Under the pieces are notes generated by a model. That model was not told the DNA's origin. It saw only the letters and a program-made list of their open reading frames with translations, and searched no databases. Made by a program: the position numbers and the translations under genes. DNA of 60,378 nt, taken from the NCBI GenBank assembly GCA_964527555.1, contig CAZGOG010000007.1, forward strand, positions 1-60,378, read 5' to 3'. This stretch comes from an uncultured Planctomycetia bacterium (GTDB taxonomy: Bacteria; Omnitrophota; Gorgyraeia; Tantalellales; Tantalellaceae). Numbering within the stretch: position 1 is the first letter of the stretch; each line of letters begins with the position of its first letter. This document shows positions 1 to 39,300 of the stretch, piece after piece.

Positions 1-210
1 CGGAAGAACAAACTGCTCTCTGTCGGTGCGTGGGATGAGATGCAGGTTGCCGAAGACTATGAACTGGGGCTTGTATTATGGTTTAATGGTCTTAACGTAC
101 CTAATTTTTATACTCTTACTTCAGAGGACCCGGCATCCACTACGTTCCTTACTTTTGAGGTAAGGACGCTTCAGACCTCAAGGTGGAACAAGGGTTATAT
201 AATAGGACTG
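1..210 (+). other. GT2 (cellulose-synthase-like) catalytic C-terminal motifs in G1
   Basis: VGAWDEMQVAEDYELG matches the GxWDxxxxxED motif; QTSRW (172-186) is the QxxRW motif; hydrophobic TM helices follow. Confidence 0.85.
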
Positions 211-6296: not shown

Positions 6297-6350
6297 ATGT
6301 CCTCACCGCCTGAGTCGTAACAAGCTTAGGGGTGGGGACATTCTTTTTCT
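6297..6350 (+). terminator. Intrinsic terminator after G1
   Basis: ATGTCCTCACC-G-CCTGAG / CTTAGG-GGTGGGGACAT stem (two G-U pairs) followed by TCTTTTTCT. Confidence 0.8.
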
Positions 6351-6466
6351 GGCAAGCAGCCAGTTTTATATTAATTTACATAACATATTATAAATATTAG
6401 ACTTGAGAATCCAAGGAAAAATTATTTTACAATATGTTAAGATTCAAAAAAGCTTGCAAAGAATTA

Positions 6467-6494
6467 TTGACTAGAATTAAGCATGTGTTATAAT
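6467..6494 (+). promoter_or_regulatory. sigma70-type promoter with extended -10 for G2
   Basis: TTGACT (6467-6472), 16 nt spacer, TGn, TATAAT (6489-6494). Confidence 0.7.
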
Positions 6495-6554
6495 AATGTA
6501 AACTTACAAGTTAAGAAATAAAAAAGTTTAAGCTAGGTTTTTGTTTATTCAATC

Positions 6555-24500: not shown

Positions 24501-27500
24501 AGGATCTCGCATGAAGCGGCCCAAAGGGTGAAAGAGATAAACCAGATGAGAGCTGCCAAGCCAAAAGTCTCAAGAAGGGGATACTCACATGGCGGCAGAA
24601 AACCGTGGGGTAGAACAAGTCTCGATATTATGTTACCGGAGGTACTTATCACCGCGGTAATCGCAATAGTCGTTGCGATTTTAACGCTTGGTGTGGAGAC
24701 AAACCTGGTCATTTACACAGTAGCAGCTATTTTAGTGTTTTCCGCCGCTTTTATGGGGGCTTTATCGCTTGGAGCGGGTATCAAGTATTTAAGGAACAAA
24801 CATCCGGAGGAATTGACGCCGCTTGAAGAGGGCATAAGAAGAAGCATTAAATATTACGCACCTGATGTAGAACTTCAGGAAGAAGAAGCTGAAGAAGAGC
24901 AGCATTTCCAGGCTCTTATAGATCCAGCTAAAGCGCCCCAGTATTATTCCGAGGAGATAGTCTTTAATGCATCCGGCTATACGGGTAATAGTGTCGATGA
25001 TATTAAGGAATACTTGAGGGAAGAAAATGGAACTGCTGTTTCCGTTGAAGGACCTAAGATAGGAGAGATTACCGTTGTCAAGAATTTCGAGGCAGACGCA
25101 CGTATAGCTGCTCAACTTGTAACGTACGGTATAAATATTAAACAACTTATTCAAAAAGACCTGGCCAAAGCGATAAGGATCCGGGGGCCGAACCTATTCC
25201 AGGGTCTGGAAGATAGAGAAATGTCACTTGTCCTTCTCGATAAATCCCCGTCCATATTCGAAGACCATAAGAAGAATAATTTCATCGGAATAAATAGAGT
25301 TCTCTTTGATAAAATCGCCAAAAACACCTCAAAAGAGGTTCTTGAAATTTTACTTATTACAGGTATACTTCACGAGCTAAGGCATGAAGCAGGCGAGGGG
25401 GATGAGGAGAAAATTACAAAAGAAGACGTTAGTCTTATTATATCCTTGGCAGCTCAGAAGGGCGTAACTATAAGATCAATTATTGATGTAATTAACCTGG
25501 TTTCAGGAGAGAGTCTACTTGTTGAAGAGTTAGAGAAGACTCCGTCTATAAATGTCCTAGCCGTTAAGATGATAACGAATGCAGCCAACCGTGCGATTAA
25601 GAATATAGAAGAGAAAGGCTGGATTACAACAACCCATAAAGATGGAATACTTAACCTTCTAAGACAGATAGCTAGAGGCGATGTCCCGTGTGGAACGGTA
25701 TATGATACTTCTCTTTCTTATACCGAACGAATAATGATAGATAGCCTTGGCAGGACTCGGGTAGAAATCAATACAGCACTTTTCTTTAACCACTCAGATA
25801 TGGAACACGAGGCTGATATTGTGCACGAAGTTGTACATTTCTTGCCACATCAAGTTGCCATGATACCTCTAGTAAACCAGCTTCTTCCGCAAGTAATTGG
25901 AATCCAGAATAGTCTTTCCGAGAGAGCTTTTAGCGAAAGAATTAAGGCTGACATAGATTTGCGTGAAATGAATAAACGGTTGTGGGCAATTAAAGTGCAG
26001 GGTGAAGCCGAGGCTCACTCAATTGGATATGAATACTGTAAAAATGCTTTACACCAAGAGAGTATAAAGTTTAAAGATTATTTACTAGAGAAAGCGGATT
26101 ATTTAGAGCAGGTGGCCGTTCGGGGTGATGTGGCAGCAAGGGCTAACCGTTGGCTGGTCCAGCATTTAACGGAAGAAGGCGCATTGGATTCCCGCTTCAA
26201 GCTATGGGTGATGAAAATTGCGCTTCATGAAAATACTATGAACATAATACGACAAATAGCCGAAGCTGAAGGTGTTGACACCTCAGACGAAACTCAGTAT
26301 GAACAGTGGTTACTTGCGTGGGTGAACAATCCAGAGTACGGTGGGATAGAGCCGGAAGGCGTGAAAACAGAAGCGCCAGAAACAGCTGTTAGCAAAAGAA
26401 TTAAGAAAGTTGCCGGTATTGTTATCCAACATATGGAAAAAGACGGGTGGATCGTTTCAAGCCACAAGGAAGAACTAATTGCACTCTTAAAAGAGATTAC
26501 AGAAGAGGGCAAATTCGAACTATTTAATGATCCCGCTCGTGGGATGGTTATGTGGATCGACGAGAAAAGAGACAATATATTGCAGGTCAATACGGCTCTT
26601 ATAGGCATGTATTCAGATCAAGAGATGGAATCAATACTAATACACGAGATGTTTCATCGACTGCCTCATCAGATTAAACGGCGCCGGAGAATTAACGAAA
26701 TCCTCGAGGAGCTAAAACGAAAGAAACCGGCAGCGGATGTTTTCTTCTGGAGAAATGAGGAGGGAAATGAAGTGCGTGAATTACTTAAGAGACTCATCGC
26801 CCTAAGAATACGAAATGAGGTTGAAGCCTGGTCTATTCAACATGAATATAGAAAACATATCGCTGAAAGCCTTGGATTTACCGATGTGAGGGATTACTAC
26901 CGAAAATGTGCGAGGGAAACTACCAGTCCGGGTATAAGAGAAGACTCTAACATTTTTATTAGAACTACACAAGATGACGGGACTTTAGGAGGAGAATTCA
27001 AGTGGATGCTCTTATCAATAATATTGCTACCATTAGGAGCCTCAGTAGCGAGGGGGCTCAGGGAGATGCTTAAAAACACCGCTACAGCTGAAGGTATTCT
27101 TTCTTCTGATGAAAATCAGTTTAAGGCGTGGCTGTTATCATGGATAGATGATGTAAAATACTGTGAAGTAGAACCAGAGGCCACACCAGTGAAGCCTTTG
27201 CCGGCTGAGACGGTAAAACCAACCCAGGAACCGACAGAAAGCGACGTGCGCAAGAGAATGACCCGGATCGCCAGCGAGGTCATCCGGCATATCGAGAAAG
27301 ACGGGTGGATCACTACGGAGTATGCCGGGGATATCGTTGGGGTTCTGCGCGATATCATAGAGAAAGGCGATTTTGAGATATATAACGAGCCGAATGACCC
27401 TTGGGGGCTTAAGGTCTCTCCGGCGAGCCATGGAGCCGGACACGTATTAAAGGCCAATAGGCCTATAATAGCTATGGATTCGGATGAGGAACTTGAAACG

Positions 27501-30092
27501 GATTTAGTGCATGAAACGGTGCATCTCCTGCCGCATCAAGTTAAGCGTCATCAGCAGCATTTAAGAATGCCGCAGGAGCTAAGGAACGTACGCGACGATC
27601 TTGGCATTTACTTTGAAAGCGGAGATGAAGCCGACAAAGCGCGCGAAGGACTGAAAAAACTCATAGCGCTTATGATAAGGAATGAGTTTGAAGCTTGTAC
27701 CATCCAGCATGAATACCGAAAATTTCAGGCATTGAACCTAGGGTATAGCAATCTAAGAGAATATTTGGAGGCGCAGCTTAAAAAGGCTGATACTGCTGAG
27801 CGTAAAAAGCGGTATTATGGTATTCTTATCAGAGGTACAGGCAGAGACGATAATTTAAACGATGAGTTTATGATAGCTTTGGTTAGGAGGATATTCCCCC
27901 TCCAGATGCAGCAAAGGGTGGACAACATGGCTACATTTGAGGGCGTACTGCATTTTGATGCGACCCAGTTCAACCCATGGATGTTATCATGGCTGAATGA
28001 TCCGCAATATTGCGAGGCAGAAACCGCTAAAGCCGAAGATGTTGAAGAGGACCCGGAGAAAACCGCGCTTGAGATCCGAAACAAAGTGATCAGCGCCGCC
28101 GAAAAAGCGCGAAGGCGTATCACCGAGGAAGGATGGATCACGTCCGAGCAGAAAAATGACATAGCGGAACGCCTGGAGAGTTTTATAGGGAACCCTGTTA
28201 TCGAGCTAACCGGGGATAAGAAGTCTTTCCCGCTGGAAAGCGTATCAGTGTCCCCGGTTAAATGGGCTCTTAAGGTGCATTTTAAAGCGGCCAGCGAGAT
28301 CCCGGAAGAGGATCTTGAATCATATCTGGTGAGAGAGGCTTATCGCGTTCTTCCGCGCCAGGAGGAAAAGCGCAGGAAGATAATCGAGGTATACCGGGAA
28401 TTTGCCGGACCAAAATTCCGTCTTTTCTTAAATACCCTGACGAGGAAGAAGGAGCAAAAAAGTAATATAGCCAGGCGCAGTTCGAAAGCGTTTCTTGCCG
28501 GCGTCATCAACGAGGAGTTCGAAGCCTGTTCCGTCCAGCAGGAATACCGCAGGCGCCTCGCGCAGGAAGGGGGATATGAGGACCTTAAAGAGTATCTCCG
28601 AAACGCCAGGAGCCGGATAACGTCAAATCCGGCGGTGAAGAAGTTTATCGAAAAAATAAGTTTTTACACGGCGGAAGACGGTACATTAAGACCGGAACTC
28701 AGGATAGCACTACTTGAAGAAGAAGCTTCGGTCAACAGTAATGTAAAAGAGATGCGAAACGCGCTTATGAGCTTTGAGAGGATTTTCCGCGGGTGTGCGA
28801 AAGAGAAAAAAGAAAAATGGTTCCTTTCCTGGCTGGCGGATCCCGTATATTATGAGGCGCCTCTCGCCAGGCCCATTCCTTCAGAGAAGAAAGAGACGAA
28901 AGCAAAACAGAAAAAAGGCCGGCGGTCTGAAGCCATAAAAAAGAAGAGCATACAGGAAAGGATCAAGCACCTGCGTTTACTTGTAAGTACGCTTCCACGC
29001 ATCCGTTCGTTCCGCCTTGACCAGAAGAGCATATGCCAGATGAGGATAGCTAACGCTTTTGAAGCTTTCCACGGCAAAAGGATACTGGAGGCTGTCGTAG
29101 CCCTTCCGTCGGAGGTATATGCGAAGCTAAATGCAGATGACCTAAAGAAGCTTTCCGCGATAAAAGGCGTTGCGGAGGTAATCTGCCTAAATTCTTCCGG
29201 TGAAGAGGAGATGATGGGCGAGCTGCAGGCGAGAATAAAGGGAACCAGGCGTATGGGGGCTCTCATAGACGAAAAAGTCCTTGAAGGGGTGCGTGACGAG
29301 AATCTAACGGGTGAACTAGAAGCGATCATAACTGATTTTATAGGAAAAGTAAGTGATGATATTGCCCCAGCGTCAGCAGAAACTGTTGAAGAAGGCACAG
29401 CCAGCTCTTGCGTAGAATATATAAAAGACATAGCTAAGAAGAGAAATGAACATTATCTGGTGCACTTTGCGGACGGAGAGGACCTGCTTTCAGGTAAAGG
29501 CCCCATGATCGTTCCTCCGGGGCTTGAGATCGAGAGGCGTCGCGAAGCAGAGAAGATAGAAGACAAAATAGATCCGAATCACGATAAGTTCTTCATAGTT
29601 GCGCCGGAAGGGACCAGTACTAAAGAAGAAATAAACACCTTTAAAAGAGGCGTTATGGATCTCTGGATGCTTGAAGGCGTGGTGAGTGAGGATGATATTA
29701 TAATACTTCCGAGGAAGAAGGAAGGATACACGACAAGTGACCTCTATAAGTTGCTTGCGGATCATGCCAAGGACGGGATAGAGCCGGCAAGTAGTAACAC
29801 TGGCTTCATGTCGCTTAGCGGAAACTTGCGCTATGACGACAGTGCCGCGGAAAAAGACTTATTGCAGCTTAATATTGCTCCGGAAGCTAAGAGCAATATA
29901 AACCAGTATACAGTTTTCGTAAATCTTGTGCTGTCGCGGGAGGAAAACGAGATAAGCTATAGAATAGAAGGTCTTGAAGAGATCAAGAGCGGACTGTATA
30001 TCTACTTGCCGGAAGCCAGAGCCATTGATCTTGAAAGAGAAGTTAGGAATTATTACTACAGGCATCTTAGAGAGATACTAGTAAAAGCGTAA
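6555..30092 (+). CDS. Giant multidomain membrane protein G2 (7845 aa): signal-like segment, EreA/ChaN/Tiki-like domain, internal Tat-like motifs, large internal duplications, YD-like repeats, processive GT2, CBM-like domain, five zincin modules, shared C-terminal domain
   Basis: Uninterrupted ORF in the track. The start may be the ATG at 6588, which has AGGGA 6 nt upstream. Confidence 0.96.
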   Translation: MAGEYIKQGICMDIQNNRKSHFHEKTFHYKEVCPFFSSTKEDNSNYGIADWKKRNAFFIKCVSILLSIIFFHQQAGWTQEGKPVWTEIKSYDAYHEKLDNTSIDIPYDVANTQEALANGGDEVIINIQDAHASLAAQYSIAKLLDSLVANYDLEFIAIEGGSGYIDTSLLKTFPDKKVRDKAANILMEEGHMSAGEFFAVTHDESEIDLYGVEDDALYNANVESFRAVAGDRIERVDNINKLLKELENIERKVSSNELYTFSENCARHRDGEFSFSDHWKYIENLAENKKIKFNPEPELAKLVEAIRLEKTIDFSKANTERKRLIDSLSDIIGKAELEALVKKSLDFKENRISQATFHTYIIDLAAKHNIPADGYTNLIAFAEYVDIYESVDIVKLYRQMANLEKTVKEKLYRTGEEREFYALKRMLELAKKLYSLELTNDECADIESGYKDFTPARYASFIKDASSKYSLAISGDYDLSEVFNSIDEALNFYRDAEARNSAILANTVKRMRSSGKRVAALITGGYHTQGLTELMRQKKLSYLVVIPKFEDKRERPYIAILTNRKKPYEKVLETGKYQLAIEAIFRDKMDRESQKALFSLTYDLTMRDASIKPGERERKRRIWIEAYEARYDMLVELKGKRDMAKKMTPNEFRAFLAGKAAEEDSRKEGEKTAAEKTEEEKITEIVDFVIANDPDLYKLISRLLPTGNETTVKIRDEISVRLRSKGLEPTEDNILKVIRRLEIHYIENTTTSEPVIEVKFGREEPVQLSIRMSELAGEFADYVAFVKGGGELQDLAFTSEDRKFIEEKLTLLKTDLQALAVFEADDETRQLILRHTDLAIGALYSGLNTYPPDIREEVEDITFTYGSSRLIKDIVISCDTFEKAEDLAMKIGLYDGKTKREYSHTEIMALKGSFQLDEETVDEDDARRQFVVVKDWQVSRRDFLKGAGLGILAGSLLVSDENTALAEKPNGNLRMGQPEVLAGRAGTFKYVKRPLYDNGHELGVAIIRYSEKDPKGELILYNSYEKMLKARGVDMRYLPPEPRTKVNPGVLKEPVQRILSLLESEYPTEMKGDEEEKGIKGLNKVIKAERWCQIWADICSVHRMNEERAKEHLEGMYGFLKMVIKETKKRNERRLSGLNKRHPRERKVKMEFPSLMAAIMYDVLPFSETGEMNNRFLGLPEMLMLADYLQLELEKDICKNYMYTIAGVEEGKVEISEERVWQGRIEKTKFFDIIEDLTDKRYYWHMRVAMKTISGDIYKEGYQHNGDWEDYIGRLAVLEASRKSFFGYKDSEFYKRWRAKAGETLGDYNRRILRDNIDELDIVYRFMITQDLSPDEMEKLAPFLHGLEPELDNIFGSYEDEKAPELIRPWHGSYLAVILDNLKRLPYKPDYGPIVESEVREVRALLHVGRLLNAAKGLEVIELLKKKLGIDEIRKNLNKKMEFLLWMVKELQLSQDQMPDIYTAAHYVKILQTIPSLIKEGPDKGKYISTKYDEEAYYKRGEKIDKEIIKYYVVYYPPEGSEPVGKKKYKTFTPIVDQDGTREVHVTYGEDTYAREIWRVNDDAAESFDVKTAAINGKLVNKVIYKNGLRIIETVDDVDTPKGGVTVDARWLYDVFSKVFPRLATEKVKKFYENIIVPFIELVYPLAALSLLAKVQGVPLMSFDLGSSMAVAALMAAGAVFVTSHIIGLSTIINKLTGRAPPKIERASLIISTLISLARVFIILPVAVVVTNLCFGRPDLTIFVYLALDWLFHAKISSSAPGIMKWIERRTRKDVIKGEGKGQLRRDFIKEVLSFLTGGALIPAGDKTVAGESQAEGELKVAEKLPEPPEEVLEGLKMPMIDPKKTAAYYIPPDSKTGRVLFSSDKHKIYVHFYDDLKDPNFVYISSTAKKDMVVIDGVYHHIWSVYKVKEKSTEVGGMVHIDKMKIIGKAIKLKFDGHQIIDEADQPKEGGKEPEEIPEKAPEVSGEITFSSKGETALLKGLGAGETLGEPQLLAENTVLQQGCIKYPIYREGAEVGAAIVDVSPVMGELHESVISKVYFNETDKLIDLRRTPPEPRTKIDPEALEGPVKDILALLEREYPQEMTGQRKDGTSVEGAKALNGFVGIHRTEKRPGWCEIWANICSVHRMREEVAVEHLKGVRVFLEMIIGELKKRNTRREEEGKKKMELPPVLGQGMYGLLPLDETGEINNRFPGLPEILMLADFLQVQLIKHRFENTDIPDSLPHRIVSPESLFDLWINKKCEGIDTGIFSIVEDLSDGKDIIRARAQMKIKGAYIYDNMYQHYAGADKIGRLAVFDAAMECFPGYKRWKARPGESLYDYYYRIWMRNKDDLNIFYRFIVNQDMSPEELKRLTPFLRDLDPQLEEIFGSYEEMPLEDLGKEWHGATLADFLEQHKGERKKLDESMMVKVQAEDISGLLHTDRLLNAARGLGIADEVKKGVSPGKIQKELDKKIAFLKEIVRDFQKAQGQTPSIFTASHYVKNLQTVPALIQEGEYKDDKYISIKYNERDYYDKDIKTVQYYVLYNDELGKESFKTFTPMVDQDGRREIHVTYGGDSYAREIWRVDKDAAESFDVKTGRINGRLIERLENINGVRIIEPVKDTEYVKEGVTVHTRWQRVVATILLGTFGVTLPYEAGAAAMNAAILAAEVQTQRQLQLEIAEELPKPSPELLKDFEDAIANPKSPASYYIPPGSETGRVLFSALDRIYAHFYDDLKDPKFIYETSMAEDDLLEINGKLHHVWSVYEVVRKSTDSEGKVQIDETKLIGEVINLKFDKDTHQAASKGDRFANINTREVTYKTPDGKEHSDYYRYVKYVGDAPEGLKEYIFKRKKLDDGKFHLVAALDPKKADVTTDGELIIKGDEKDAIVKEYKYDKDYTWQYDCNLKTKNIFASPYNRVATKATSNAIVKLKSLSGYEDADGFVLPYDRGAFLKNVLEEYGYYPDGSLMWKKDHVNKQYTLYTEYTMLGRLCRLSGTIYDYTPETDTKGEELRSFSGYSEYETETFFAVIKGNPGVYYRTLKGAERADALLEASPNPQAGRMDITGILKEFEYNADGSLAKVWDYKLGEVAVYKWHRKFGTEKKLTDIGGDIYKFDGRKKETSGEPLRSFNGITDKTGAFFERTDEPDVYYWTEQGKLRAKALVKAKPDEAHDLMLVEKVIKHFKDSQIEIDGKNRIFELSIPGSLTKGERFICYGVEVEDPKSGKKLEDFGVKVEAVWQGKDAPISGIKVLEYYKQNMIPGKEKYAGNFGVDVYVLEDGKVAEKPFKTFRKLGPNSAERDHISKVVNDYADKYPENNLGRASDEELLNALFNVEGYEEGDDAFLRDVIDRALEMRGVLDGIFKQNNIKVLEQDKTLQNEILSHILYWTAAEDIDFDELLEKLPEASTIKGLMEYIHRKHKDFDNLLKEERYVIVLDTLTGCAKTMVETGRSKKDMEVVLRVWIRYEDESGTGAMNAGDVYKEIESGTSAIRNREYVWDIVKIGLAVTGILFLAAVFLRILRSLNSTKRIRALGPPAAGAGDAAALAEGAADAGEDAAGSPEEAGHGFAPKTVRVPMIIAGAALVLSWFMYTNDWSMWLVIPLAIISLYVLARSYALLHNGIRANMMVYGMSPWEAFNTELSFSVKRGGRYDTDAFEVLPATTRFFPPMFTRGILQILDYMLEVFDVLKDFKVSQLRDYVIDEYRIPISKKGRVAKTGDFVVEKVLDVKEDDTPSTFILGKTTPGAAMQEIIKRHESIRNHILALPALYLPAIFGYHRILVFLGLGSKRSGKKLFNRPINPPNKWAVKLKVKTRDDIEKEIKARRKTRDDKAQDFVGDISFDTEKAFKKAHYALNPRFKWPGFKGLVNVDYRWNLWGAGFLLTGAFIVYHNAMKVWTSGDWGGFGISAWVVAAVFMLLSGIINRKLIWDKAGFIVPFVSGLTVLMVNLLATSVIGGWTGFGLPMWGFGAFLVISSLIVGFKIKRGVWYPTEEKQTEALKILARQLGDIIEKVKEKITYGDDVLKAEQWKEVFNFPVRAPFGDPEDAVNIQMVEIDFLGYLEYCRDWTTFFTTSPNKNKYYFFSKYHTPPYDPQYFLPTFWVKGPAFTQLRTNMRRDGSPTEFISYGPAGDLTVQEGRGLPSIDTSIPALTAAVEGEEGNEENLGMIALMPGTEEETTVQFGPQYNLAYEPITHETPHNGQIAYRNSYQTAPWDNILKMLDQAKARLKDIKEAGERRYGEDFDPDNMAQYRQASQDDKKKILYAETRSVDSFKGFGGPGPESSSYIKFMKRHKLTIIFMSALFVLGTYGVYIGKSVLMSWNWIPDMTGMSIGMHTGSVFLAMVTIYMVMISIEKLILFFSKFFGNPEAITDEDILSVPPRILVELISEIEVKMRNEGRPIPSYLANINQLRVNVNNAGPVGDQAREQVRNIIMQASLETGNWAQRFHQNVSNFKWGYRNLSFSRKAAFFVPYLLALFILQIVHRVFGLYYFIARKGRILAEEKPTLWFLNRLRLETPLLKVISLINRPRHTVIGILEERRYLTPQQAADLRAVRGRFTNEDVLEHLNINAINHILKDNYISRRYGSLLRTGIVMDTTFGGTTGDNLWRMAKSAVDSYPGGVDVYLIFDDNDAVGLKQFEDTVQKIRNDPTMGDRVADRIYRLTFPAPLANLELTQRSQRMKPPMNVEAVMAIQHDFVLRHREPPEFMELVDQEDVLGELNLVTKACIRDIRERHVQEQLYLGCTTQEGLRWGIDYDKAVYGTAISRFFGRIFGNTPLSGLFPTGLAGEYHDMIEALTREANYPNTLIDLIRLKNTPGATALPWATSNNADERIRYILWCFLKSAGTKKEFIEKEFRRRNMPSVIQSELRQVPIKDPEWSKYSYMDYLIWHSTIQTGQTRLGFLFLGGTGNNFEWEDLSGVIPRLDANHNLTGFDFINWRHYFNFLLRPQREEIQREETIQHNRKKEEGLSFRPDLLVTRPSAIYREWVNKYMPTGTWDLFNIIEDSELGSRIALRGQKSTRLEGLYTQILEDELPAEGIKWWLQRSRWISVQTFSAVISHRPAAFMFFGQHIFAALAWGLIGTKLTLIPGIIAVLIAFYAGGWFSYFVGIGVSRLFRRIGWERNEQWQTDPLKTMGGFFLGWWRFQNMAYLSSAAFAGLAAGITLLVTALYFGITIFSTSFFVCLDGGIFQLLSYVTSTNLGTIPTMENWLITTMFGIIFFLNPQVQQTLMGWIVASINAPEDEESTRQQLWARIEDRGFRKLFGFDNEWILDPNNPPAAAVIHGPYPPINIDKYRDEGAINQLLARYHRFALNAIERNAQEIQDLLIEWTPLLLGKDTIQAMLTEIAHATSRGIKEEDFVKDKKIYAFLLKEWKTFISARGEHDFYEFIERRAKASRDGNIDPAINTANMFLFNSWKEFNAARKKQPVDPGKIGSIYVYKNAMMQAITESKSLWGYTHGRVTIGLKGALTGLGMLALTWWVLSALYLIPAFVTTTFIVLGLVMIIGWMVSLFVSIFIDNPNWKAGRSPQSKIGRLAYHGTMWFLRIPLMLIYFSGMIVAAAFAIYTALSAWVNEAFWLRGRQRISVTFLPGDRPTLANYIDVAILKSRAEGWAYFLILVAFFVICGLPAVKALEQERVNAIRTVTIEPIWQEFIKTPNENTARRLYDFAYWDAVKRDKGGVDLRLDSSGLIISKLGLREEKKMTPDEADTVFKGALIWIQAYRKALYDAGEENSLNAQYAFERVINGFETFCQRYEMMDRFEKYFPTEAISLLGEGFTATCDPDPGEVGLDATKKELLIKPDLEKDYIWIWPDSKAGNILDVYFDLPPEMVTIDMEGKEFVFEFFVPEDQMSAFTGRSIKAFYVDTEGRDCDVGGEEEIIQYEPLPEHQREQGTLVRVNVAPDKRSPSGFNFMAKRFFIRIDGNQNRPVSGESIRIISPRVQSRISLLDRLNYDWQNLNLFGTKTAPPRGQITPPPAQEVKPPAKPTIGSKRAQKAQRTSWLKRISHEAAQRVKEINQMRAAKPKVSRRGYSHGGRKPWGRTSLDIMLPEVLITAVIAIVVAILTLGVETNLVIYTVAAILVFSAAFMGALSLGAGIKYLRNKHPEELTPLEEGIRRSIKYYAPDVELQEEEAEEEQHFQALIDPAKAPQYYSEEIVFNASGYTGNSVDDIKEYLREENGTAVSVEGPKIGEITVVKNFEADARIAAQLVTYGINIKQLIQKDLAKAIRIRGPNLFQGLEDREMSLVLLDKSPSIFEDHKKNNFIGINRVLFDKIAKNTSKEVLEILLITGILHELRHEAGEGDEEKITKEDVSLIISLAAQKGVTIRSIIDVINLVSGESLLVEELEKTPSINVLAVKMITNAANRAIKNIEEKGWITTTHKDGILNLLRQIARGDVPCGTVYDTSLSYTERIMIDSLGRTRVEINTALFFNHSDMEHEADIVHEVVHFLPHQVAMIPLVNQLLPQVIGIQNSLSERAFSERIKADIDLREMNKRLWAIKVQGEAEAHSIGYEYCKNALHQESIKFKDYLLEKADYLEQVAVRGDVAARANRWLVQHLTEEGALDSRFKLWVMKIALHENTMNIIRQIAEAEGVDTSDETQYEQWLLAWVNNPEYGGIEPEGVKTEAPETAVSKRIKKVAGIVIQHMEKDGWIVSSHKEELIALLKEITEEGKFELFNDPARGMVMWIDEKRDNILQVNTALIGMYSDQEMESILIHEMFHRLPHQIKRRRRINEILEELKRKKPAADVFFWRNEEGNEVRELLKRLIALRIRNEVEAWSIQHEYRKHIAESLGFTDVRDYYRKCARETTSPGIREDSNIFIRTTQDDGTLGGEFKWMLLSIILLPLGASVARGLREMLKNTATAEGILSSDENQFKAWLLSWIDDVKYCEVEPEATPVKPLPAETVKPTQEPTESDVRKRMTRIASEVIRHIEKDGWITTEYAGDIVGVLRDIIEKGDFEIYNEPNDPWGLKVSPASHGAGHVLKANRPIIAMDSDEELETDLVHETVHLLPHQVKRHQQHLRMPQELRNVRDDLGIYFESGDEADKAREGLKKLIALMIRNEFEACTIQHEYRKFQALNLGYSNLREYLEAQLKKADTAERKKRYYGILIRGTGRDDNLNDEFMIALVRRIFPLQMQQRVDNMATFEGVLHFDATQFNPWMLSWLNDPQYCEAETAKAEDVEEDPEKTALEIRNKVISAAEKARRRITEEGWITSEQKNDIAERLESFIGNPVIELTGDKKSFPLESVSVSPVKWALKVHFKAASEIPEEDLESYLVREAYRVLPRQEEKRRKIIEVYREFAGPKFRLFLNTLTRKKEQKSNIARRSSKAFLAGVINEEFEACSVQQEYRRRLAQEGGYEDLKEYLRNARSRITSNPAVKKFIEKISFYTAEDGTLRPELRIALLEEEASVNSNVKEMRNALMSFERIFRGCAKEKKEKWFLSWLADPVYYEAPLARPIPSEKKETKAKQKKGRRSEAIKKKSIQERIKHLRLLVSTLPRIRSFRLDQKSICQMRIANAFEAFHGKRILEAVVALPSEVYAKLNADDLKKLSAIKGVAEVICLNSSGEEEMMGELQARIKGTRRMGALIDEKVLEGVRDENLTGELEAIITDFIGKVSDDIAPASAETVEEGTASSCVEYIKDIAKKRNEHYLVHFADGEDLLSGKGPMIVPPGLEIERRREAEKIEDKIDPNHDKFFIVAPEGTSTKEEINTFKRGVMDLWMLEGVVSEDDIIILPRKKEGYTTSDLYKLLADHAKDGIEPASSNTGFMSLSGNLRYDDSAAEKDLLQLNIAPEAKSNINQYTVFVNLVLSREENEISYRIEGLEEIKSGLYIYLPEARAIDLEREVRNYYYRHLREILVKA
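6900..8200 (+). other. Conserved N-terminal domain of G2 (EreA/ChaN/Tiki-like pattern), paralogous to G3 30600-31900
   Basis: IQDAH (His 6945), IAIEG (Glu 7029), RNSAILANT (8049), ALITGGYH (His 8133); nearly the same sequence is in G3. Confidence 0.6.
9369..9452 (+). other. Internal twin-arginine (Tat) signal-like sequence 1
   Basis: SRRDFLKGAGLGILAGSLLVSDENTALA|EK: full S-R-R-x-F-L-K consensus, hydrophobic stretch and AxA site, about 940 aa into the ORF. Confidence 0.75.
9520..14402 (+). repeat. About 620-aa internal duplication in G2 (A1 9520-11387; A2 12567-14402)
   Basis: Shared strings include PPEPRTK, W.EIWA.ICSVHRM, NNRF.GLPE.LMLAD, KTFTP.VDQDG.RE.HVTYG and YAREIWRV..DAAESFDVKT; short identical nucleotide stretches are also present. 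Confidence 0.92.
11904..12002 (+). other. Internal twin-arginine signal-like sequence 2
   Basis: LRRDFIKEVLSFLTGGALIPAGDKTVAGESQAE, directly after a four-TM module. Confidence 0.55.
12006..14879 (+). repeat. About 120-aa internal duplication in G2 (B1 12006-12365; B2 14523-14879)
   Basis: YYIPP.S.TGRVLFS...IY.HFYDDLKDP.F.Y...HH.WSVY.V...LKFD in both copies. Confidence 0.9.
20330..21640 (+). other. Processive GT2 glycosyltransferase domain in G2 with all catalytic motifs
   Basis: YP..VDVYLIFDDND (20337-20381), KP (MKPP), DQED (20619), LGGTGNNF (21204), WDLFNIIEDSELG (ED at 21498), QRSRW (21618); flanked by TM bundles. Confidence 0.88.
25371..28860 (+). repeat. Zincin array in G2: one HELRH module plus four tandem repeats of about 275-290 aa
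   Basis: HELRH 25371; HEVVH 25824, HEMFH 26643, HETVH 27510, degenerate REAYR 28332. Each repeat begins ..E..GWI and ends WL.SW...P.Y (AW in repeat 1), with a downstream E.EA helix. Confidence 0.88.
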
Positions 30093-30373: not shown

Positions 30374-33300
30374 ATGGGAAAAATGGATATGTATAGAAAA
30401 CATATAATATATAAAATTATCTCTGTCGTACTTATCCTCGTGTTCATCCACGAACAGATCGGATGGACCCAGGGAGGCAGGCCCGTCTGGGCTGAGGCCA
30501 GAGAATATGTCTCCACATACCGCGATAAACTGGACACTTCGAATATAGACATACCTTACGATATAGCTGAAAAGCAGGATGTTCTTATTAATGGCACCGG
30601 CGAAATAATAATAAACATCCAGGATGCGCACGCCTCGCTTTCGGCGCAGTACTCCATAGCAAATCTCCTGGACTCACTTGCCACTAATTACGATCTTTCG
30701 CTCATCGCGGTGGAAGGCGCTTCAGGGTATGTTGATACGTCCATACTCAAGACATTTCCCGACAAGGAAAAAAGAGATAAAACCGCCAAGGAGCTTATGG
30801 CCGAAGGACGCATGAGCGCGGGTGAGTTCTTTGCGGTAACGCATGACGAGACGGAAGTGAGTCTTTACGGCGTGGAAGAAAGCGAGCTTTACCGGGCGAA
30901 TCTTGACAGTTTCAGAAGCGTTGCCGCTAACAGGGCCGAAAGGATCGCCAATGTAAATGCGCTCTTAAAAGAACTTGATTCCTTAGGGGAGAAGGTCTTT
31001 TCTAAGGACTTCCGTGATCTTAACGAGAAGTGCCTGCTTCACCGGGAAGGGAAACTTACTTTCACAGGTTACTGGGAGTATATCAAAGACTTCGCCGGGA
31101 AAAAGAAAATCGCAAAACCGGAAGGAAAAGAGCTTGCCAAGCTTCTTGAAGCTGTCGGACTTGAAAAATCCATAAATTTCAGCCGCGCAAATGACGAAAG
31201 ACGCATCCTTATCGATGAGCTTAGCGAAAAGATGGATAAAAGCGGTCTTGAGGAGCTTGTCAAGCGGTCAATCGCTTTCAAGGACCAAAAGATCTCACAG
31301 GGCGAGTTTTACTCGTATCTTCTACGCCTGCCGGAAAAGTATGGCATAGGCCCCGAAAAATACACTAATCTCATAGCCTTTGCCAAATACATAGCCCTTT
31401 ATGAGTCGATAGAGATCTTCAGGCTCTATCATGAGATAGAAGCGTTCGAGGATGGTATTCGCCAGGAGCTTTACCGTACAAGCGATGAGATAGAGCTCTA
31501 CCGGATCATCAAGATGGTGCGCCTTGTTAAGCAGCTGTACAGCATGGAGCTTACCAACGGCGAGTACGAGTATATAAAAACGAATCATAACGGGATCAAT
31601 GCTTCCGGCGTTAGTGCTTTTTTAAGAGATAAATGCAATAAGTATAAAATCGCGATAGAAGGGAGCTATGATCTTTCAAGCATATTTGGCGGCATAGATG
31701 AAGCGCTTTCCTTCTACGAGAAAGCCGAGATGAGAAATGCGGCTATGCTTACCAATACCGTCAGAAGAATGCGCGCTGAAGGCAAGCGCGTCGCGGCACT
31801 GATCACGGGAGGATACCATACCAAGGGTCTTGCTTCCCTTATGCGTGAAAAAGGGCTTTCCTATCTTGTAGTTACCCCAAAATTCGAGGACGGTAAGGAA
31901 AGACCTTACATCGCTATCCTTACCAACAAGAAAAAGGCCTATGAAAAGGTGCTTGAAACCGGCAAATACGAGTTGGCTGCGGAACTGTTTTTCCAGGACG
32001 TGCAAGATACCTCGGATGGGGCAAAGAGGATGGATTTTATTCTGAGGCGCCTTTTCCCGGGTGAAGAGAGAATACCAGATGAATCCGCCCGTATATGGAT
32101 AGAAGCGTATAAGAACACGTATCAAAGGCATGTTGATTCTCTTCCGGAAGAAGACATGGCAAAAAAGATGACACCGGAAGAGTTTGAAAAAGAAATAATG
32201 AAAAGAGCGGAAGGTGAGGTTTCCGTGAAGCAAGCGCCTGAAGAAGAGGCGCCAGCCGTATCGACCGGCGAAAAAGAAACAGAAAAAAAGACGCCCGCAG
32301 AAAAAAGGCCCATGGGAATAAAAGGGCTCATGATAGCTTACTGGGTTTCACTCGGCATAATGGGTTTAAGCATAATAGACGTCATTTGCTGGGTGGAAGG
32401 CGCGGCACCCCTTACAGTTTATTGCGCGTTCAGCATAATGAGCGCGGTCTATGTAGCAGCGCAGGTAATCATTGCGCTAGGCATAGACAAGGCTTTTAGA
32501 AAAATAGGCATCAAAATATATGCAGACGAAATAGCCTGGACGGAGAAAAAGAAGATCGTTGTCACTCCCGCGTTTTATGTTCTTTCGAAACCTATCCAAA
32601 AACTCGTTCTTATCCATGAAAAACTTCACACCTCCGGACACGGCGAAACAGCCGCTTATGCTTTGGCGCCGTTTCTTCTGGTCTTATATATCGCCTTTCC
32701 TTCTCTTTCATGGTTCAAAGAAATGGAACCGTCAAAAATCATCTTAAGAGAAGAAGATAAAGAAGAGGAGTGGCAAATAAGAAAACTTAACCCCAGACTT
32801 GACGCCGAGATCCTCAAGAAAACGCCGCCTTTTAAAAAGCGTTATATCACTATAAGCGATCTTCACGGGATCTACCCGGCCGAGCTCAGGCGTATGCTGA
32901 GGAGCGTGGGATTTATAAGCAGCAAGGATGAGATAATCGCCCGTAACACGGTGGTGGTTATCGGGGGGGATACTATCGACAGGGGACCGGTATCACTGGA
33001 GCTCTATAAGTATGTGAGATATCTGCAGGAAGAAGCGCAAAAAACCGGCTGTGAAGTCATACGTCTTCTGGGCAATCATGAGCAGATGTTATATGACGGT
33101 ATGCGGGGCAATGACGAGTCTTTACTTTTATGGGTATACAATTTGTATCGAAGCGGCGACGAATGGGGGATAGACGCTTTTGATTATTTTTACACCCAGA
33201 AGGCATATTATAGCGCAGACACCGGCCAGGGTAAGGCGGACAAAGAAACCAGCGAGAAATTAGCCGTAAGCGGCTTAAGAGAGAAAATCAGAATGAATAC

Positions 33301-36300
33301 CAAGTGGGGAGAAGTCTCCCGTCTTCTTGCGGAAGATATAGAAGAGGGAAAGTTCAAGGCCGCGCACGAATGCAATAATGTACTTTTTGTCCACGGAGGA
33401 ACTACGAATGCGCTTGCTAATTATCTTACTATCGTAAAAAAAGGATATAGCGCTAAGCTGGCCGCGGATGCGCTTAATGAAGAATTCCGCCAGCACGTAG
33501 AAAAAGAGGGCAACTTAAGCCGTCTATCGCGCTTACGCCAGGCTCTCTGGGATAGATTCACGGGTAAACGGCTTCCGTCTCATGACGATCTTAACCCCGC
33601 GGAAAGGAACATAGTAAACGGAAGCGGTATCGACTATCTTATGGTCGTCGGGCATGCGTCCGCCAAGCAGAATGGACGGATCCGCGTTTCACCATACGGT
33701 AACGTTATCAATGTTGATACCGGGCATATCGATGCATGGGGCGCAGATCACGGCTTTCTTGTGATCGAGGGGAATGATTTCTGGGCAGTTGAACTGAAAC
33801 AGCCCCAGGAAGAGACCACCCGGGAGTTCATCACAAGGACTACTGAAAAGCGTCCCGGGATCAAAGAAAAGCTTGAAAAGGTAAGAACAGCCATAAATGA
33901 GAAGAAGTACGGGGAAGCTGGTAGGGAGATAATGAAATTAGTTAGGGAGCTAGAGTTTATCTTAACGTACAGTAATTCAATAAGGGTAAACGAGCTGAAT
34001 GAATTAAGAGAAAAGAGCATGACAATTTCGGAAGAATACTCCGAGCACCTGGAGATATCCCTTATAGAGGATTTTGTTGCGGAGATAAGGGAAGCAACTT
34101 ACAAGTTTATCTCTTCGCATGAGAAGGCGTTTAGCCTGGAGGAGATGAGAGAAATCGAATCTTTTCTCTCGAAAAGGTTTGACGAGCTCAAAGAAAACTG
34201 GGCTGAAGATGCTGAGGCAAGAGAAATACTCCGGGAAATAATCAGCGAAACGATTAGTTTTGTCATAAAACACGATTCACTTTACCCCAACGAACGAAAT
34301 GAGTTCGAGGCCCAACTAAAAGAACTGTTTTCAGGATACAAGGGCAATGATAGCCAGGGCGCTTTAGCGGTAAAAGCTCTAAAGAGCCTCATGGCGAGAA
34401 TAAACCGGGAAGAGGAAAGGATTTTTGACCCTCTCATTTTTCTCAGGGAACAGGCGGAGACCATAAAACGTATCGCTGAAAAGCTTGCGGATCCTAGACT
34501 TGCCATCGATCCCCGCCAGGTGCGACTATTCATGAAAGAAGAGATGTTTCCCGGAGAACGGGCAGAAGATCTTAACGGAAAAGTACGCGAAAGAATTGCG
34601 GGACTCATCATGCCGGAAATCATCCCGACTCAAAAAAAGGACATGATCGTCGGGGTAAGATACCGGGCCTTTCTCGAAGAGATCAAGAAAGAATACGACA
34701 AGATACTCGCCGGAAGAACCGCAAAGTATGAAAAACTCAGGAAAGCCTTCGGCAGCGTGCGCAATGCGCTTAAAAAAACGCGAAAATTCATAAGGCGCAA
34801 TAGGTTCCTTATAGCGATCGGTATTACATTGGCCGCTTCCATTATGCAGGCTCTGGGTATAAACGCTTTGGGTGAAGGTGTTTTTGCAAGCGGCGTGATG
34901 ATGGCCGCGGGCTCTGGCGAAGAAGACAATGGCGAAAAAGAAGCGGATGATGCCAAAAAGCCGAAAGAGAAACCGGAGCTTCCAGTACATGAAGCGGGGC
35001 ACATAGCGCCTTTTTCCCTGGCCGATAAGGCAGAAGAGGCTGTTCCTGTCCCTCACGGATGGATAGCCAAAGCATGGGATGTCATCGGCAGAGCTTTGCC
35101 CGGCGGTAAAACCGAGACGCATAAAGATATCGTCGCCAGGGTAATAAGCAACACCGCCCATCAGGATACCGAAGATTTTGCCATTGATGTTTTAGAGGAA
35201 GGGGAGGAATCGGAACTACTAATATCTACTCGAAAGAGACAGGATATCGACCGGAGAGTAGAAGAGATGATAGAAGAAGTGTGCAGAGCTGCGGACATAA
35301 AAGACATGAATGCGCTCCAGCTCCAGCACGTTTATGAAATCCCGGTGACCGATTATAATGACCGCAGGATTACGGTAAAAGTGTACTGCTATAAGCCGAA
35401 AAATAACTATGTCATAGAAAAAGCTACAGATCGGATCAGGCAAGCTGCCGGAAATTACAGGGGTAAAACAAGTATTCCCAGCTATACGACTTCGGGCCTG
35501 TTTGCCCGGCTCCGTATTAACGGCGGGAACGCTGTTGTCCCTCAGAAGGATTCGCTGAAAAATCTACCCGAGGGTATGACCGGGAGCGACTCATTTCTCC
35601 CCCGGATAGCGTATGCGATAGCAAAAATAGAAAAAAACATCGAAAAAATGGGTGAAGATACGGATCTTGAAACGCCGGGGATGACGGATCTTTATTCAAT
35701 ATTGCAAGAGTTCAGTAAAACTGAAGCACAAGCTGGAGTGGGCGCATATAAACGCCTGGCAGGTATTATCAGAGAAAAACTTGTCGAAGTTCAGAGGAAC
35801 ATAAAAAACGCCGAGGAAGAAATAATCCGGATAAAGAAGACCAGTCAGGAAGGGGTAGATCCCAGGGAAATTGAAAGAAAAATAACTCTTCAGACTAAGA
35901 TCAAAGACGGTGCGGTTATGACGGAGGACAAGCTGCGGCAGCTCTGGTATTACATAAATAATCCTAGAGGCGACTATATGGCTGAAAGCCTCAGAATAGA
36001 GAAGGCCGGTGAGACTCGCGCTCCCTCCAGGACGCCTTTAGTTCTTATTGTTGATAACCTTACGCCTTCACAGCTTGATTACATAGTCAACAACCACTAT
36101 GTTGAGGCATTTGTCACAAAAAAAGCCACAATTACTTCACACTGGGTCATAGCGGCTAAAAATAAGAATATCCCGGTAGCTATCTTGGACATGCCGCCCA
36201 TTTTAGAACAGTACAATAAAGAACCCGCGGACCAGATCACGGTAGAGAAGGATTTCATTCATAAAAGAATGGTGCTGATAAGGTCTGATGCCAATCACAG

Positions 36301-39300
36301 CGCTGAGGTGGTATTTGCGCCTAGCATGGTAGATTGCAGGAGTTTCCGGGATACACTGCTGCAAGAAGAGGCGTTTTGGGAATTTGTACAAGCAGAGATG
36401 GAAGAGATCGTTTCCGGCGGAAATGACCAGCCGTGGCGCGACATAAAGCTGGAAGGGACAGAAGCGGAAATCTCGCTTCTGGTAAATGCCGATACCCCGG
36501 AAGACATCAGAAAAGCCAGAGAAGAGAACCATGCCGGCGGAGTGGGGCTTGTAAGGACGGAATACTTGTTCAGCAGTGACGGGGCAATCGATGAAAACGG
36601 AGAAAGGCCCCTCGTTGATTATCTGGAGAGGTTTTTCGGTGTCAAGAAAAACCCCGAAAAACCCGAAAAAACCCTGAAAGAACTGCGCGAGTCGTCTTTT
36701 TTGTACAAAAAAACACGGGAAGCCCTTAAGGAAAAGATGGTAAAAGACTTTGTCGCGTTAAGCGAAGCCGCGGCAGGGGCGCCCGTTACCATCAGAACGA
36801 TAGATTTTCAGCTTGATGATCCAGGCAAAGAGACTTTAATACACAAATATCTTAAAACTGCTGATTATGCCCGGAAACTCTTCGCCATGTGCGAAGAGGA
36901 AGGTCTGACCCAAAAGGTGGAATCAGGCGTTGATTTCTACAAAAATCCACTGGGAAGAGAAATCCTGCAACTGCAGCTCGAAGCAGCTATGGAAGCGTAT
37001 CTTATAAGCAAAGAGAAGAACATCAAGATAATGTTCCCCATGATAAGCACAATAGCAGGAGTCGATAGGCTTATATCCAACCCGGATAGTGTATTGATGC
37101 ATGCCAAGATGCGGGCGCTTAAGGATACTAAACAGGAAGGTGCTGATGAAACCAGTTTTGACGCTATCCCTATAGGGATAATGGTAGAGACGGATATGGC
37201 CGTAAGGAACATCAGCGAGCTTGTAGCGAGAAAAGAGATAAGTTTTTATTCTATCGGGACAAACGATATATCGCGCTACCTCATGGCCTACGTCAGGATT
37301 ATCGAACAGTATATCGAGCGATATATCGAAAAACTTAAGAGTAAATCTCACAACATCGATAAAAGCAAGATCAGCGATAGAGTAAGGACGGAACTATCCT
37401 TAAACTACGGTGAGTCTGTAAACTATGAAGACTTCTTGATACACCTCATGAATGTCGCCAGATATATTAAAAAATACAAAAGCGAACACGATGATAAAGA
37501 CCCGGAGATAGGCGAGATAGTAAAAGCGTTCAAGGGAAAGCAATATGAATCATTTCCGAAACTCGATGAGGTAGTGGTGGAGCCCCTGAACAGGGACGAC
37601 CCGGATAATGCGAAGTATACGACGACCCTCCAGCAGGCCGTTTTGATCGCCATAACGATTGTTTTAGGCACGATCGCGACATATAACGAAAATAAAGCTC
37701 CCGACGAGAGGAAAGAGCTTTCCATCTGCGGTGAAATGGGAAGCTGGTATAACTTCCAGGTGTTTCTTGTGAAGAAGTTAATGAAGCTCGATATAGTGCC
37801 CGGTCAGGTTCCCTTAAGTCTCAGCATGGCACGCGGCAGGATACCGGCTGTTAACGTTTTCATACGCGGGATTAAAGAGCATCATTTGGAGACTGTCGAC
37901 ACTTTCCTGGAACCGGGAAAAGACATTTTCGGCGCTATACCGGTGGACCAGATGGCGGATGGAGTGGTAGAAAGGGTGTTTGAAGATATTTTTGCGCAAG
38001 AGAACGGCGATAGAATAAGCGTTCCGAAGATGTACGAGAAGTTAAAGCAAGAGCTCGCCACTAAAGGAATAAATGAGCTTAAAACCCCGGATGAGAGAAG
38101 AAAGCGGACGCTTTACACGCTGGAACTATTAACCAGGCTAGGCGGTCCGGAAGCGGTAGGGGAAACACTCCCGACCGATATAAAAGGGGATTTTCCGGTT
38201 TCCAGTAAACTGGATGAAGAAGCGATCGCAAAAAGAGGCCGGGAAATATTGACTGAGCTTGCCAAGAAAAAAGCGCAAAAAACAGAGGATAGCGCCCTTA
38301 AAGCGGCAGAGACTTTCGTCATAAGAAGCAATCAGGGACTGCACCCGAGACCCGCGTGTGCAATCATCGACAAAGCGGAAGAATATGGGGTCCTCCTCAA
38401 GTATATAGCTTATAAGCCGGAAGGGGAGGCGGCTGAGGAAGCCGGAGACATACTTCTTAGGACTTCTGATGATAAATATCCGGACCGATTGTACGGGACA
38501 CGTGCGCTGCTTGAAAAGAGTCTTTTAGAACTGGAAGCTACCGGTGAAAGAGCCCGGGAATTTTTGGATGCGTTAACCAGCGACGACATAGGCGTATATG
38601 ATACAGACCCGCTGACGGATACTGTCATGAAATTCATGGAGGTTTCCGAGGAGAAGCTTTCACCCGAAAGGTATAAAGAAGAGCCGGGTCAGCCGGGAGA
38701 GAAACTGCCCATCAGCACGAGAGGACTCATCCTCTCGGGTCTTTTTTCACTTTTTTGCACTTTAATAGTAACAGTTCTTGCCTGTCTTGTCGCAGAGATA
38801 ATAAAACAGCATTATCTCTGGATTTTTATCATTGCCTCCGGTTTCATATTCCATTTTGCCTATAAATTCGGCAAGGACTGGCAGCTGGCGGATGTAATAA
38901 TAAGGGCTTATGAAACAGCAAAAATAGCGCCTGAAGAGGTTTACCCGGCATGGACTGAGGATGAGACGATACATGTTTTCGTTAATGTTTATGATGAGAT
39001 CAGCAAAGAGTTCCAGGTGAAAATCCACACGCACGAAAAAGCGCATGTATTTTTAAACAGGCTTTTGAAGAAAGTAGGATTGCGTCAAGGCAAAGTCCTT
39101 ACCGCGATAAATCACTTTGCCGCGTATCAGTTTCCATGGCTTGGGCGTTTTGCTAAAGACGTAAAGACCCAGCCGGAATTTTATAGAAGAAAACCGGTTG
39201 CGCCATCCGAAACGAAGACAAACTGGGTTATCGAAGTCATCACCGTTTGTGGGGTTCTTTTGATCTTCGGGGCGGCTTTTATTTACATGGGTTATAAGGC

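Follow-up and report, generated by a model that had tools for sequence, protein, structure and literature searches.

The stretch of DNA analysed here, hereafter the window, comprises 60,378 nucleotides (nt) of contig CAZGOG010000007.1 from an uncultured marine bacterium, labelled Planctomycetia, that GTDB places in the Omnitrophota. From end to end (1-60378) it consists of four co-directional giant reading frames, p0 to p3, with gaps of only 280-360 nt between them (Table 1). The second frame, p1, carries four tandem repeats, three with an intact HExxH metallopeptidase motif and a fourth in which this motif reads REAYR. We show that the repeat is the domain of a previously undescribed family of predicted zincin-fold metallopeptidases, nearest to M48 (BepA, HtpX) and the minigluzincins. 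We describe the distribution of the family, its putative zinc site and its modelled structure, and we discuss what three apparently live copies and one dead copy may do near the end of a giant membrane protein.

The four repeats

The array covers nt 25527-28874, and its repeat unit is about 275 amino acids (aa) long. All four copies lie in frame within a single open reading frame (ORF). The motifs HEVVH, HEMFH, HETVH and REAYR had been noted by a first-pass annotation made from the letters of the DNA; its distances from motif to motif (819, 867 and 822 nt) match ours exactly. Pairwise identity between the copies is 17-39% (BLASTP E 1e-7 to 1e-34). At the DNA level repetition is almost nil, the best match being 63 nt at 71% around the motif. 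In a comparison of 36 copies of the family, the copies of the window proved as distant from one another as from homologues in other organisms, which indicates that the array is old. A tree of the 36 copies gave bootstrap values of 0-20% for all groupings of interest, including that of copy 4 with the dead copy of family member P0002. No orthologue of the four-copy array was found in the collections searched (1.84 billion representative proteins, GTDB genomes and metagenome contigs).

Several studies of sediment and seawater metagenomes have yielded independent contigs, 25-51 kb long, that span the array with 0 differences, REAYR included. Array and REAYR are therefore no artefact of assembly or sequencing. 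Since these contigs, drawn from four runs, are identical to the window, they carry no information on selection.

Table 1. Positions of the reading frames, repeats and motifs in the window
Feature	Position (nt)	Residues of p1 (aa)	Strand	Remark
p0	1-6195		+	giant frame, open from base 1
p1	6555-30092		+	7845 aa, 23.5-kb ORF; holds the four repeats near its end
p2	30374-52207		+	7277 aa, giant frame
p3	52572-60378		+	>2600 aa, runs off the window end
Last predicted transmembrane hairpin before the repeats	24627-24764	6025-6070	+	Lys/Arg-rich flanks on both sides
Repeat 1	25527-26354	6325-6600	+	HEVVH-FLPHQ, GEAEA, WLLAWVNNPEY; catalytic set intact
Repeat 2	26355-27206	6601-6884	+	HEMFH-RLPHQ, NEVEA, WLLSWIDDVKY; catalytic set intact; copy modelled
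Repeat 3	27207-28034	6885-7160	+	HETVH-LLPHQ, NEFEA, WMLSWLNDPQY; catalytic set intact
Repeat 4	28035-28874	7161-7440	+	REAYR-VLPRQ, EEFEA, WFLSWLADPVYY; predicted pseudo-protease
HEVVH, copy 1	25824-25838	6424	+	predicted zinc-binding/catalytic motif
HEMFH, copy 2	26643-26657	6697	+	
HETVH, copy 3	27510-27524	6986	+	
REAYR, copy 4	28332-28346	7260	+	degenerate motif; codons AGA GAG GCT TAT CGC
GEAEA, copy 1	26001-26015		+	Glu-helix motif; first Glu = candidate third zinc ligand
NEVEA, copy 2	26814-26828		+	Glu-helix motif; repeat E155 aligns on BepA E201
NEFEA, copy 3	27681-27695		+	Glu-helix motif
EEFEA, copy 4	28512-28526		+	Glu-helix motif, kept in the dead copy
C-terminal signature equivalents, copies 1-3	start 26307, 27129, 27978		+	
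WFLSWLADPVYY, copy 4	28818-28853		+	C-terminal signature (W-x-L-S-W-L-x-D-P-x-Y-Y)

A rare and unannotated family

An exhaustive profile search (hidden Markov model) of 1.84 billion representative proteins returned 29 proteins or clusters, one of them the window's own product. A word-index search for protein homologues found nothing, either with the alignment of the four repeats or with an alignment of 32 members. DNA collections were searched with a degenerate pattern for the C-terminal signature, W-x-L-S-W-L-x-D-P-x-Y-[YF]. In the GTDB genomes, among whose representatives the window's own genome is not included, this pattern gave three true loci and one chance match. All three loci belong to metagenome-assembled genomes (MAGs) labelled Planctomycetia or Planctomycetales, and each lies within a frame that is open across the whole fetched locus of 6.6-8 kb. 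Metagenome contigs of JGI added four chance matches and one true locus, identical in sequence to the GTDB locus L001. No viral contig matched the pattern. Phage and plasmid records gave no tblastn match, so nothing points to a mobile or viral origin. PADLOC returned one chance-level match only.

At locus L001 (contig CAZNEE010000003.1, from a Planctomycetia-labelled MAG) two live copies, with HEMVH and HEIVH, stand in tandem, and their frame is open over all of the 8-9-kb locus. Parts of this frame resemble P0002, and the identical sequence is found on a 217-kb metagenome contig (L013, Ga0180432_10000025).

The family occurs in MAGs labelled Omnitrophota and Planctomycetia. Its members differ widely in size, from proteins of about 250 aa that have one domain behind a signal peptide up to fragments exceeding 5000 aa. 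The large members P0005, P0014, P0018 and P0019 open with the same N-terminal domain of about 550 aa as p1 and p2 of the window (E 1e-37 to 1e-49), so the zincin-like domain recurs in one kind of giant protein. Three of ten members looked up carry public names: 'hypothetical protein' of Candidatus Omnitrophota bacterium, 'hypothetical protein' of bacterium F11, and the IMG label 'HEAT repeat protein/serine/threonine protein kinase', which refers only to the other domains of that member. The cut-offs of Pfam and NCBIfam were reached by no member of the family. Two homologues (P0003, P0020) stand on short contigs with carotenoid, glycosyltransferase and MMPL genes, and these contexts were not informative. 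The consensus of the family reads ...V-N....S..E.E..L.H-E..H.L-P.Q..R ... R...K...A....N-E.E-A......Y....A...G......Y ... D-G ... E-G ... W.L-S-W-L.D-P.Y.

Predicted structure of the domain

Repeat 2 was modelled with AlphaFold 2, once with the four-repeat alignment (predicted local distance difference test, pLDDT, 83; predicted template modelling score, pTM, 0.82) and once with 32 family members (pLDDT 91, pTM 0.88). In the model two helices are followed by three short strands, a helix (residues 88-100) ending in HEMFH, a break at R-L-P and a further helix (104-123); then come a long helix (135-172) that contains NEVEA and six more helices. Foldseek searches with both models gave chains of selecase as the best PDB matches (probability 0.97-0.98), and projannalysin was also among the matches. 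In a library of viral structures there were weak matches only, several of them SprT-like or named 'metallopeptidase'.

In these models the catalytic core is a recognisable zincin, and the predicted 275-residue domain as a whole, above all its C-terminal bundle, is without a solved counterpart. The domain would begin with two helices ending in a conserved G-W, followed by a three-stranded sheet. The predicted active-site helix, S-x-x-E-x-E-x-x-L-x-H-E-x-x-H, would be kinked at L-P-x-Q and lead into an insert of about 50 residues, the long N-E-x-E-A helix and finally a helical bundle ending in W-x-L-S-W-L-x-D-P-x-Y-Y.

Relation to known metallopeptidase families

Profile searches of the PDB sequences matched the family to selecase MJ1213 (E 3.7e-5), projannalysin (E 7.5e-4), the Geobacter M48 peptidase 3c37 (E 0.027) and BepA and HtpX (E about 0.05-0.1). 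The aligned stretch comprises the last strands and LSDEE-x-x-x-IL-x-HE-x-x-H. With a single sequence as query, the PDB sequences gave chance matches only. Aligned with hhalign, the family matched E. coli HtpX (residues 93-148) over the sheet and HExxH helix with a probability of 82% (E 1e-5), and BepA (112-240) from the sheet through HExxH to beyond the Glu helix (E 1.7e-4).

Nearly all sub-threshold Pfam matches are zincins, with SprT-like in 9 of the 32 members, M48 in 7, and M56, DUF5700 and PhageMetallopep besides. For M48 (PF01435) the best member has an E value of 0.0019 and a score below the cut-off, and the NCBIfam matches LoiP, HtpX and BepA (E 0.002-0.04) all remain below theirs. The SprT-like model (PF10263) has a cut-off of 25.6 bits; one repeat alone reaches 21.1 bits, and only a joint scan of all four attains 26.4 bits (E 6.7e-6). 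We rejected membership in SprT/Wss1 on the single-domain score. Membership in M48 was rejected as well: besides the scores, the H-P-x4-R active-site plug that marks M48 (PMC7950410) is absent from our alignments of 32 and 36 sequences, in which the consensus after NExEA reads Y....A...G......Y. Sub-threshold scores and absent plug together make the domain M48-like, not M48.

The candidate zinc site

HExxH is intact in 30 of the 36 family copies; copies 1-3 of the window have this gluzincin motif and copy 4 does not. The Glu of N-E-x-E-A, 54 residues past the second His, is kept in 34 of the 36, and the two copies that are without it are both HExxH-dead. In hhalign the family motif r-N-E-v-E-A falls exactly on Q-N200-E201-Q-E-A-D of BepA (numbering checked), in whose crystal structure H136, H140, E201 and the plug residue H246 coordinate the metal (PMC7950410). 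Because the Glu is so widely kept and aligns on BepA E201, two His and a downstream Glu form the best-supported candidate zinc site. This supports the gluzincin-type assignment of the repeats put forward in the first-pass annotation. The E.EA helix that it placed downstream of each motif is likewise found, as GEAEA, NEVEA, NEFEA and EEFEA, and lies within the predicted helix 135-172 of the repeat 2 model. In each of copies 1-3 a single zinc ion would be bound by the His pair of HExxH together with the first NExEA Glu. The Glu of HExxH would activate a water molecule for cleavage of a peptide bond in a substrate positioned along the edge strand.

Alternatively, the copies of the window might hold zinc by three His (H-E-x-x-H-x-L-P-H), as minigluzincins, SprT and Wss1 do, with a merely structural Glu in NExEA; they would then not be strict gluzincins. 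It fits this alternative that copies 1-3 have the full set of three His, each of which is an Arg in copy 4, that the minigluzincins, which reportedly use a His as third ligand, are the closest solved relatives, and that SprT-like is the commonest Pfam match. In the family at large, however, the third His occurs in only 6 of 36 copies as compared to 34 for the Glu, and it is the Glu that aligns on BepA E201. Moreover, P0010 has an intact HEMTH followed by LPRQ, which shows that an Arg in the position of the third His is compatible with a live motif. Nor are three-His zincins known to space their ligands in this way, with the third His four residues past the second and directly behind a Pro kink. 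We regard a three-His site as decidedly unlikely.

The same counts bear on LPHQ, which had been noted after each of the first three motifs. Its Leu, Pro and Gln are typical of the family, but its His is not: elsewhere the position is occupied by K, A, R, S, T, V, L and others while HExxH is intact. The pattern L-P-x-Q would rather be the family-typical kink after the active-site helix than a ligand motif.

The degenerate fourth copy

In copy 4 the two His of HExxH and the His of LPH are all replaced by Arg (codons AGA, CGC and CGC as compared to CAC or CAT in copies 1-3). The first-pass annotation had described copy 4 as a copy with Arg for both His ligands and the rest of the repeat kept; the loss of the third His was implied by its LPRQ and is made explicit here. 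At least 5 nucleotide changes separate copy 4 from the His codons, which speaks against both a sequencing error and a lesion of recent date. Copy 4 still has its catalytic Glu and its G-W turn, as well as the N/E-E-x-E-A helix and the terminal signature. Against a profile of the family from which all sequences of the window were excluded, copy 4 reaches 147 bits despite the cost of the missing His, close to copy 1 with 150 (copy 2, 242; copy 3, 206). The open frame, the several steps of change and the retained score point to a copy that is maintained and not decaying, and we predict copy 4 to be an old, maintained pseudo-protease. With Arg in place of its three His it would bind no zinc and keep the fold, and it probably serves as a non-catalytic binding or regulatory module.

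Altogether 6 of the 36 copies are degenerate, copy 4 included. The others read QNMVR..LPRQ (P0002), KEIYK (the first of two copies in P0003), VGLVT (P0013), KQAIH (P0026) and HAMSH (P0022). Such losses could mean that no copy is an enzyme in vivo and that the domain is a protein-binding or scaffold module of protease descent, in which HExxH binds a metal for structural purposes only. The domain is kept even where it is dead, so the fold appears useful without catalysis; P0002, a protein truncated at its N-terminus, has only a dead copy, and the large C-terminal helical bundle is without a counterpart in proteases. Against this, 30 of the 31 copies with both His also have the catalytic Glu (the exception is HAMSH of P0022), although a metal could be held without it. 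The stretch S-x-x-E-L-E-x-x-L-x-HExxH, typical of active M48 and minigluzincin enzymes, is also conserved. We consider a wholly non-enzymatic domain highly improbable.

Topology and possible role

p1 has about 20 hydrophobic segments and is predicted to be a multi-pass membrane protein. Its last predicted hairpin before the repeats is preceded by KPKVSRRGYSHGGRKPWGR, has the loop G-V-E-T-N and is followed by KYLRNKH...RRSIK. By the positive-inside rule these flanks, rich in Lys and Arg, would place the C-terminal 1775 residues in the cytoplasm. The repeats probably face the cytoplasm, tethered behind this hairpin.

In our preferred explanation the four copies are ancient duplicates kept in one membrane-tethered polypeptide. 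They would be M48-like gluzincin domains, of which copies 1-3 act as endoproteases on the giant multi-domain chains of the locus, p1 itself included, either to process them or for quality control, with copy 4 as their partner. We give this explanation as a whole a probability of roughly 0.6; what it says of zinc binding and peptidase activity, of topology and substrates, and of what copy 4 does is inferred. Giant 'multi-enzyme' proteins with many membrane helices are known from Omnitrophota, and their cleavage has been suggested from C39 and S8 domains (bioRxiv 10.1101/2023.11.21.568195; bioRxiv 10.64898/2026.06.07.730766). This background, together with the predicted topology, the enzyme domains of p2 and the further HExxH modules of p1 and p2, leads us to a weak preference for the processing role. 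A more far-reaching version, in which a new peptidase family limited to bacteria of the Omnitrophota/Planctomycetota type cuts giant multi-enzyme membrane proteins into functional parts, the live copies recognising different junctions and the dead copy holding the chain, seems to us quite doubtful.

Several observations weigh against the preferred explanation. The matches to curated protease families are all sub-threshold, the hhalign probability for BepA is only 49%, and the M48 plug is missing. The Foldseek E values are non-significant (0.1-0.4), with about 85 core residues superposed and a template modelling score of about 0.4 on the target. The third His that copies 1-3 have disappears in copy 4 along with the first two, which leaves some probability for a three-His site. 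The topology is deduced from a single hairpin and the positive-inside rule. Small members, having one domain behind a signal peptide, cannot process in cis, and the zincin-like domain is absent from p2.

Another possibility is that the C-terminal part of p1 is exported or delivered and that the three live copies, with individual specificities, break down proteins of prey or host cells, the dead copy serving to bind or target substrates. The first-pass annotation had likewise inferred a protease battery of diversified specificity with a decoy or substrate-binding copy, for old and divergent copies a plausible reading. Signal peptides on several small members, the divergence of the copies, which are 26-39% identical and vary in the inner HExxH residues (VV, MF, TV), and the occurrence of the family in Omnitrophota- and Planctomycetia-labelled MAGs would suit such a use. 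A predation role has been proposed for giant Omnitrophota proteins (bioRxiv 10.1101/2023.11.21.568195), and the Legionella effector RavK has the same remote matches (MJ1213, proabylysin, projannalysin, LF and 3C37; bioRxiv 10.1101/2024.03.14.585084). However, the Lys/Arg-rich flanks of the last hairpin argue for a cytoplasmic C-terminal part, the neighbouring p2 carries typically cytoplasmic enzyme domains (PEP-utilising, aldolase and phosphoesterase), and domain scans found no secretion or cell-surface domain beside the repeats. An offensive use is unlikely in our judgement, and we favour processing or quality control within the cell.

Other features of the locus

The guanine-cytosine skew is positive along the entire window. 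A Pfam scan of the 7845 aa of p1 gave no domain other than the repeats. p1 contains a larger internal duplication, nt 9408-12395 versus 12447-14915 (aa 952-1947 versus 1965-2787), with 37-64% identity; these segments of about 800-1000 aa are without a Pfam match.

An N-terminal domain is common to p1 (nt 6705-8600, aa ~54-681) and p2 (nt 30395-32305, aa ~8-644) at 52% identity. Its invariants are I-Q-D-x-H, A-Q, E and T-G-G-x-H. It shows weak Pfam matches to the Tiki/ChaN/TraB-PrgY-GumN superfamily (E 0.0013 and 0.035), and its middle part has a weak likeness to calmodulin (E 3.6e-5). At the other end, p1 (nt 29094-30089, aa 7514-7845) and p2 (nt 51089-52204, aa 6906-7277) have a domain of about 330 aa in common, with 33-40% identity. 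The chains end in ...VLIRA (p0, near nt 6192), ...ILVKA (p1) and ...ILVRA (p2). A terminal Ala is also found in about 18 of 24 complete family proteins of other organisms, many with P-x-L-[LR]-x-A-[AS], and in many small family members the signal peptide is followed by F-x-x-[EQ]-A-L. The shared terminal Ala tail might act as a terminal signal peculiar to the lineage, as a degron or as a plug for the protease.

Domains of p2 (nt 32846-33202, 36038-37309 and 48929-50345) comprise a calcineurin-like phosphoesterase, phosphoenolpyruvate (PEP)-utilising mobile and PEP-binding domains, HEAT repeats and a class II fructose-bisphosphate aldolase. This mixture in one membrane protein resembles the 'multi-enzyme' giant proteins described for Omnitrophota.

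HExxH occurs five times in p1 and three times in p2, as compared to about 0.2 expected from composition in each. Since these modules exceed expectation in both, putative proteases appear to be a recurrent part of these giants. Two of the p2 motifs, HEKLH (nt 32615-32629, aa 748) and HEKAH (nt 39032-39046, aa 2887), are similar to each other (A-W-T-E...I.V....Y..S-K..Q....H-E-K-x-H) and adjoin hydrophobic segments. They may represent a second kind of small membrane-proximal metalloprotease module. In p1, HELRH (nt 25371-25385, aa 6273) lies about 150 residues upstream of the motif of the first repeat and is preceded by the strand-like NFIGINRVLF and SKEVLEILLITGIL. We rejected it as a fifth copy, the hhalign match to the repeat family having E 0.039 and a probability of 1%. 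The segment has the layout of a minimal zincin and may be another kind of minimal HExxH module.

Significance

Bacterial genes of at least 20 kb are mostly 'dark', and whether their products act as one chain or are cut is a question on which this domain gives a handle: it is confidently modelled, related to zincins, present in three copies that have an intact catalytic set and appear live, and shared with further giant proteins from these groups of bacteria. Judged from its sequence, it is a new family within a known enzyme class in an unusual setting, and it adds an unannotated branch to the M48/minigluzincin group. With 6 of 36 copies having lost the putative zinc site, it offers a compact case for the study of how proteases become binding modules. 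If the far-reaching version given above is true, bacterial giant genes would encode self-processing polyproteins, which have hitherto been proposed only from C39 and S8 domains and never shown. Should the domains be inactive, the finding would shrink to a new helical repeat without an assigned use.

Comparison with known systems

With M48 (BepA, HtpX, LoiP, Ste24; PF01435) the family has in common the sheet, S-x-x-E-L-x-x-V-x-x-HExxH, an insert ('lid') and the N-E-x-E-A-(D) helix, which carries the third zinc ligand in M48 and the candidate for it in the family. It differs in two extra N-terminal helices, in a predicted C-terminal helical bundle of about 110 residues ending in W-x-L-S-W-L-x-D-P-x-Y-Y, and in the tandem arrangement of its domain inside giant proteins. 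The minigluzincins (selecase MJ1213, projannalysin, proabylysin; PDB 4QHF/4QHJ, 4JIX) are its best PDB matches by both profile and fold, with the same strand-strand-strand-helix core and the LSDEE-x-x-x-IL-x-HE-x-x-H signature. They are free-standing proteins of about 100-110 residues, whereas our domain, with about 275 residues and embedded in large proteins, is no minimal scaffold. The third ligand of minigluzincins is said to be His; the conserved candidate of the family is the Glu about 54 residues downstream. The likeness to SprT-like, Wss1 (WLM) and Spartan proteins, the commonest in Pfam, spans only the strands and the HExxH helix, and the family is without their zinc ribbon, DNA-binding and SUMO/ubiquitin-related parts. 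SprT/Wss1-type enzymes, which are related to the family more distantly than M48 and the minigluzincins, have themselves been described as minigluzincin-like (PMC4559962).

For the arrangement of live and dead copies there are parallels in other proteins. Carboxypeptidase D, with three M14 domains, and polyserase-1, with three serine-protease domains, are membrane-tethered tandem paralogues in which the third protease domain is inactive but conserved. These are animal proteins of the M14 and S1 families, of unrelated folds and from another kingdom, so that the analogy is one of architecture only. Anthrax lethal factor (M34) belongs to another family, is a secreted toxin and has its dead copy at the N-terminus. 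That dead copy arose by duplication of the zincin catalytic domain, has degenerated and is used for binding beside the live copy; it provides a precedent for the role that we propose for copy 4.

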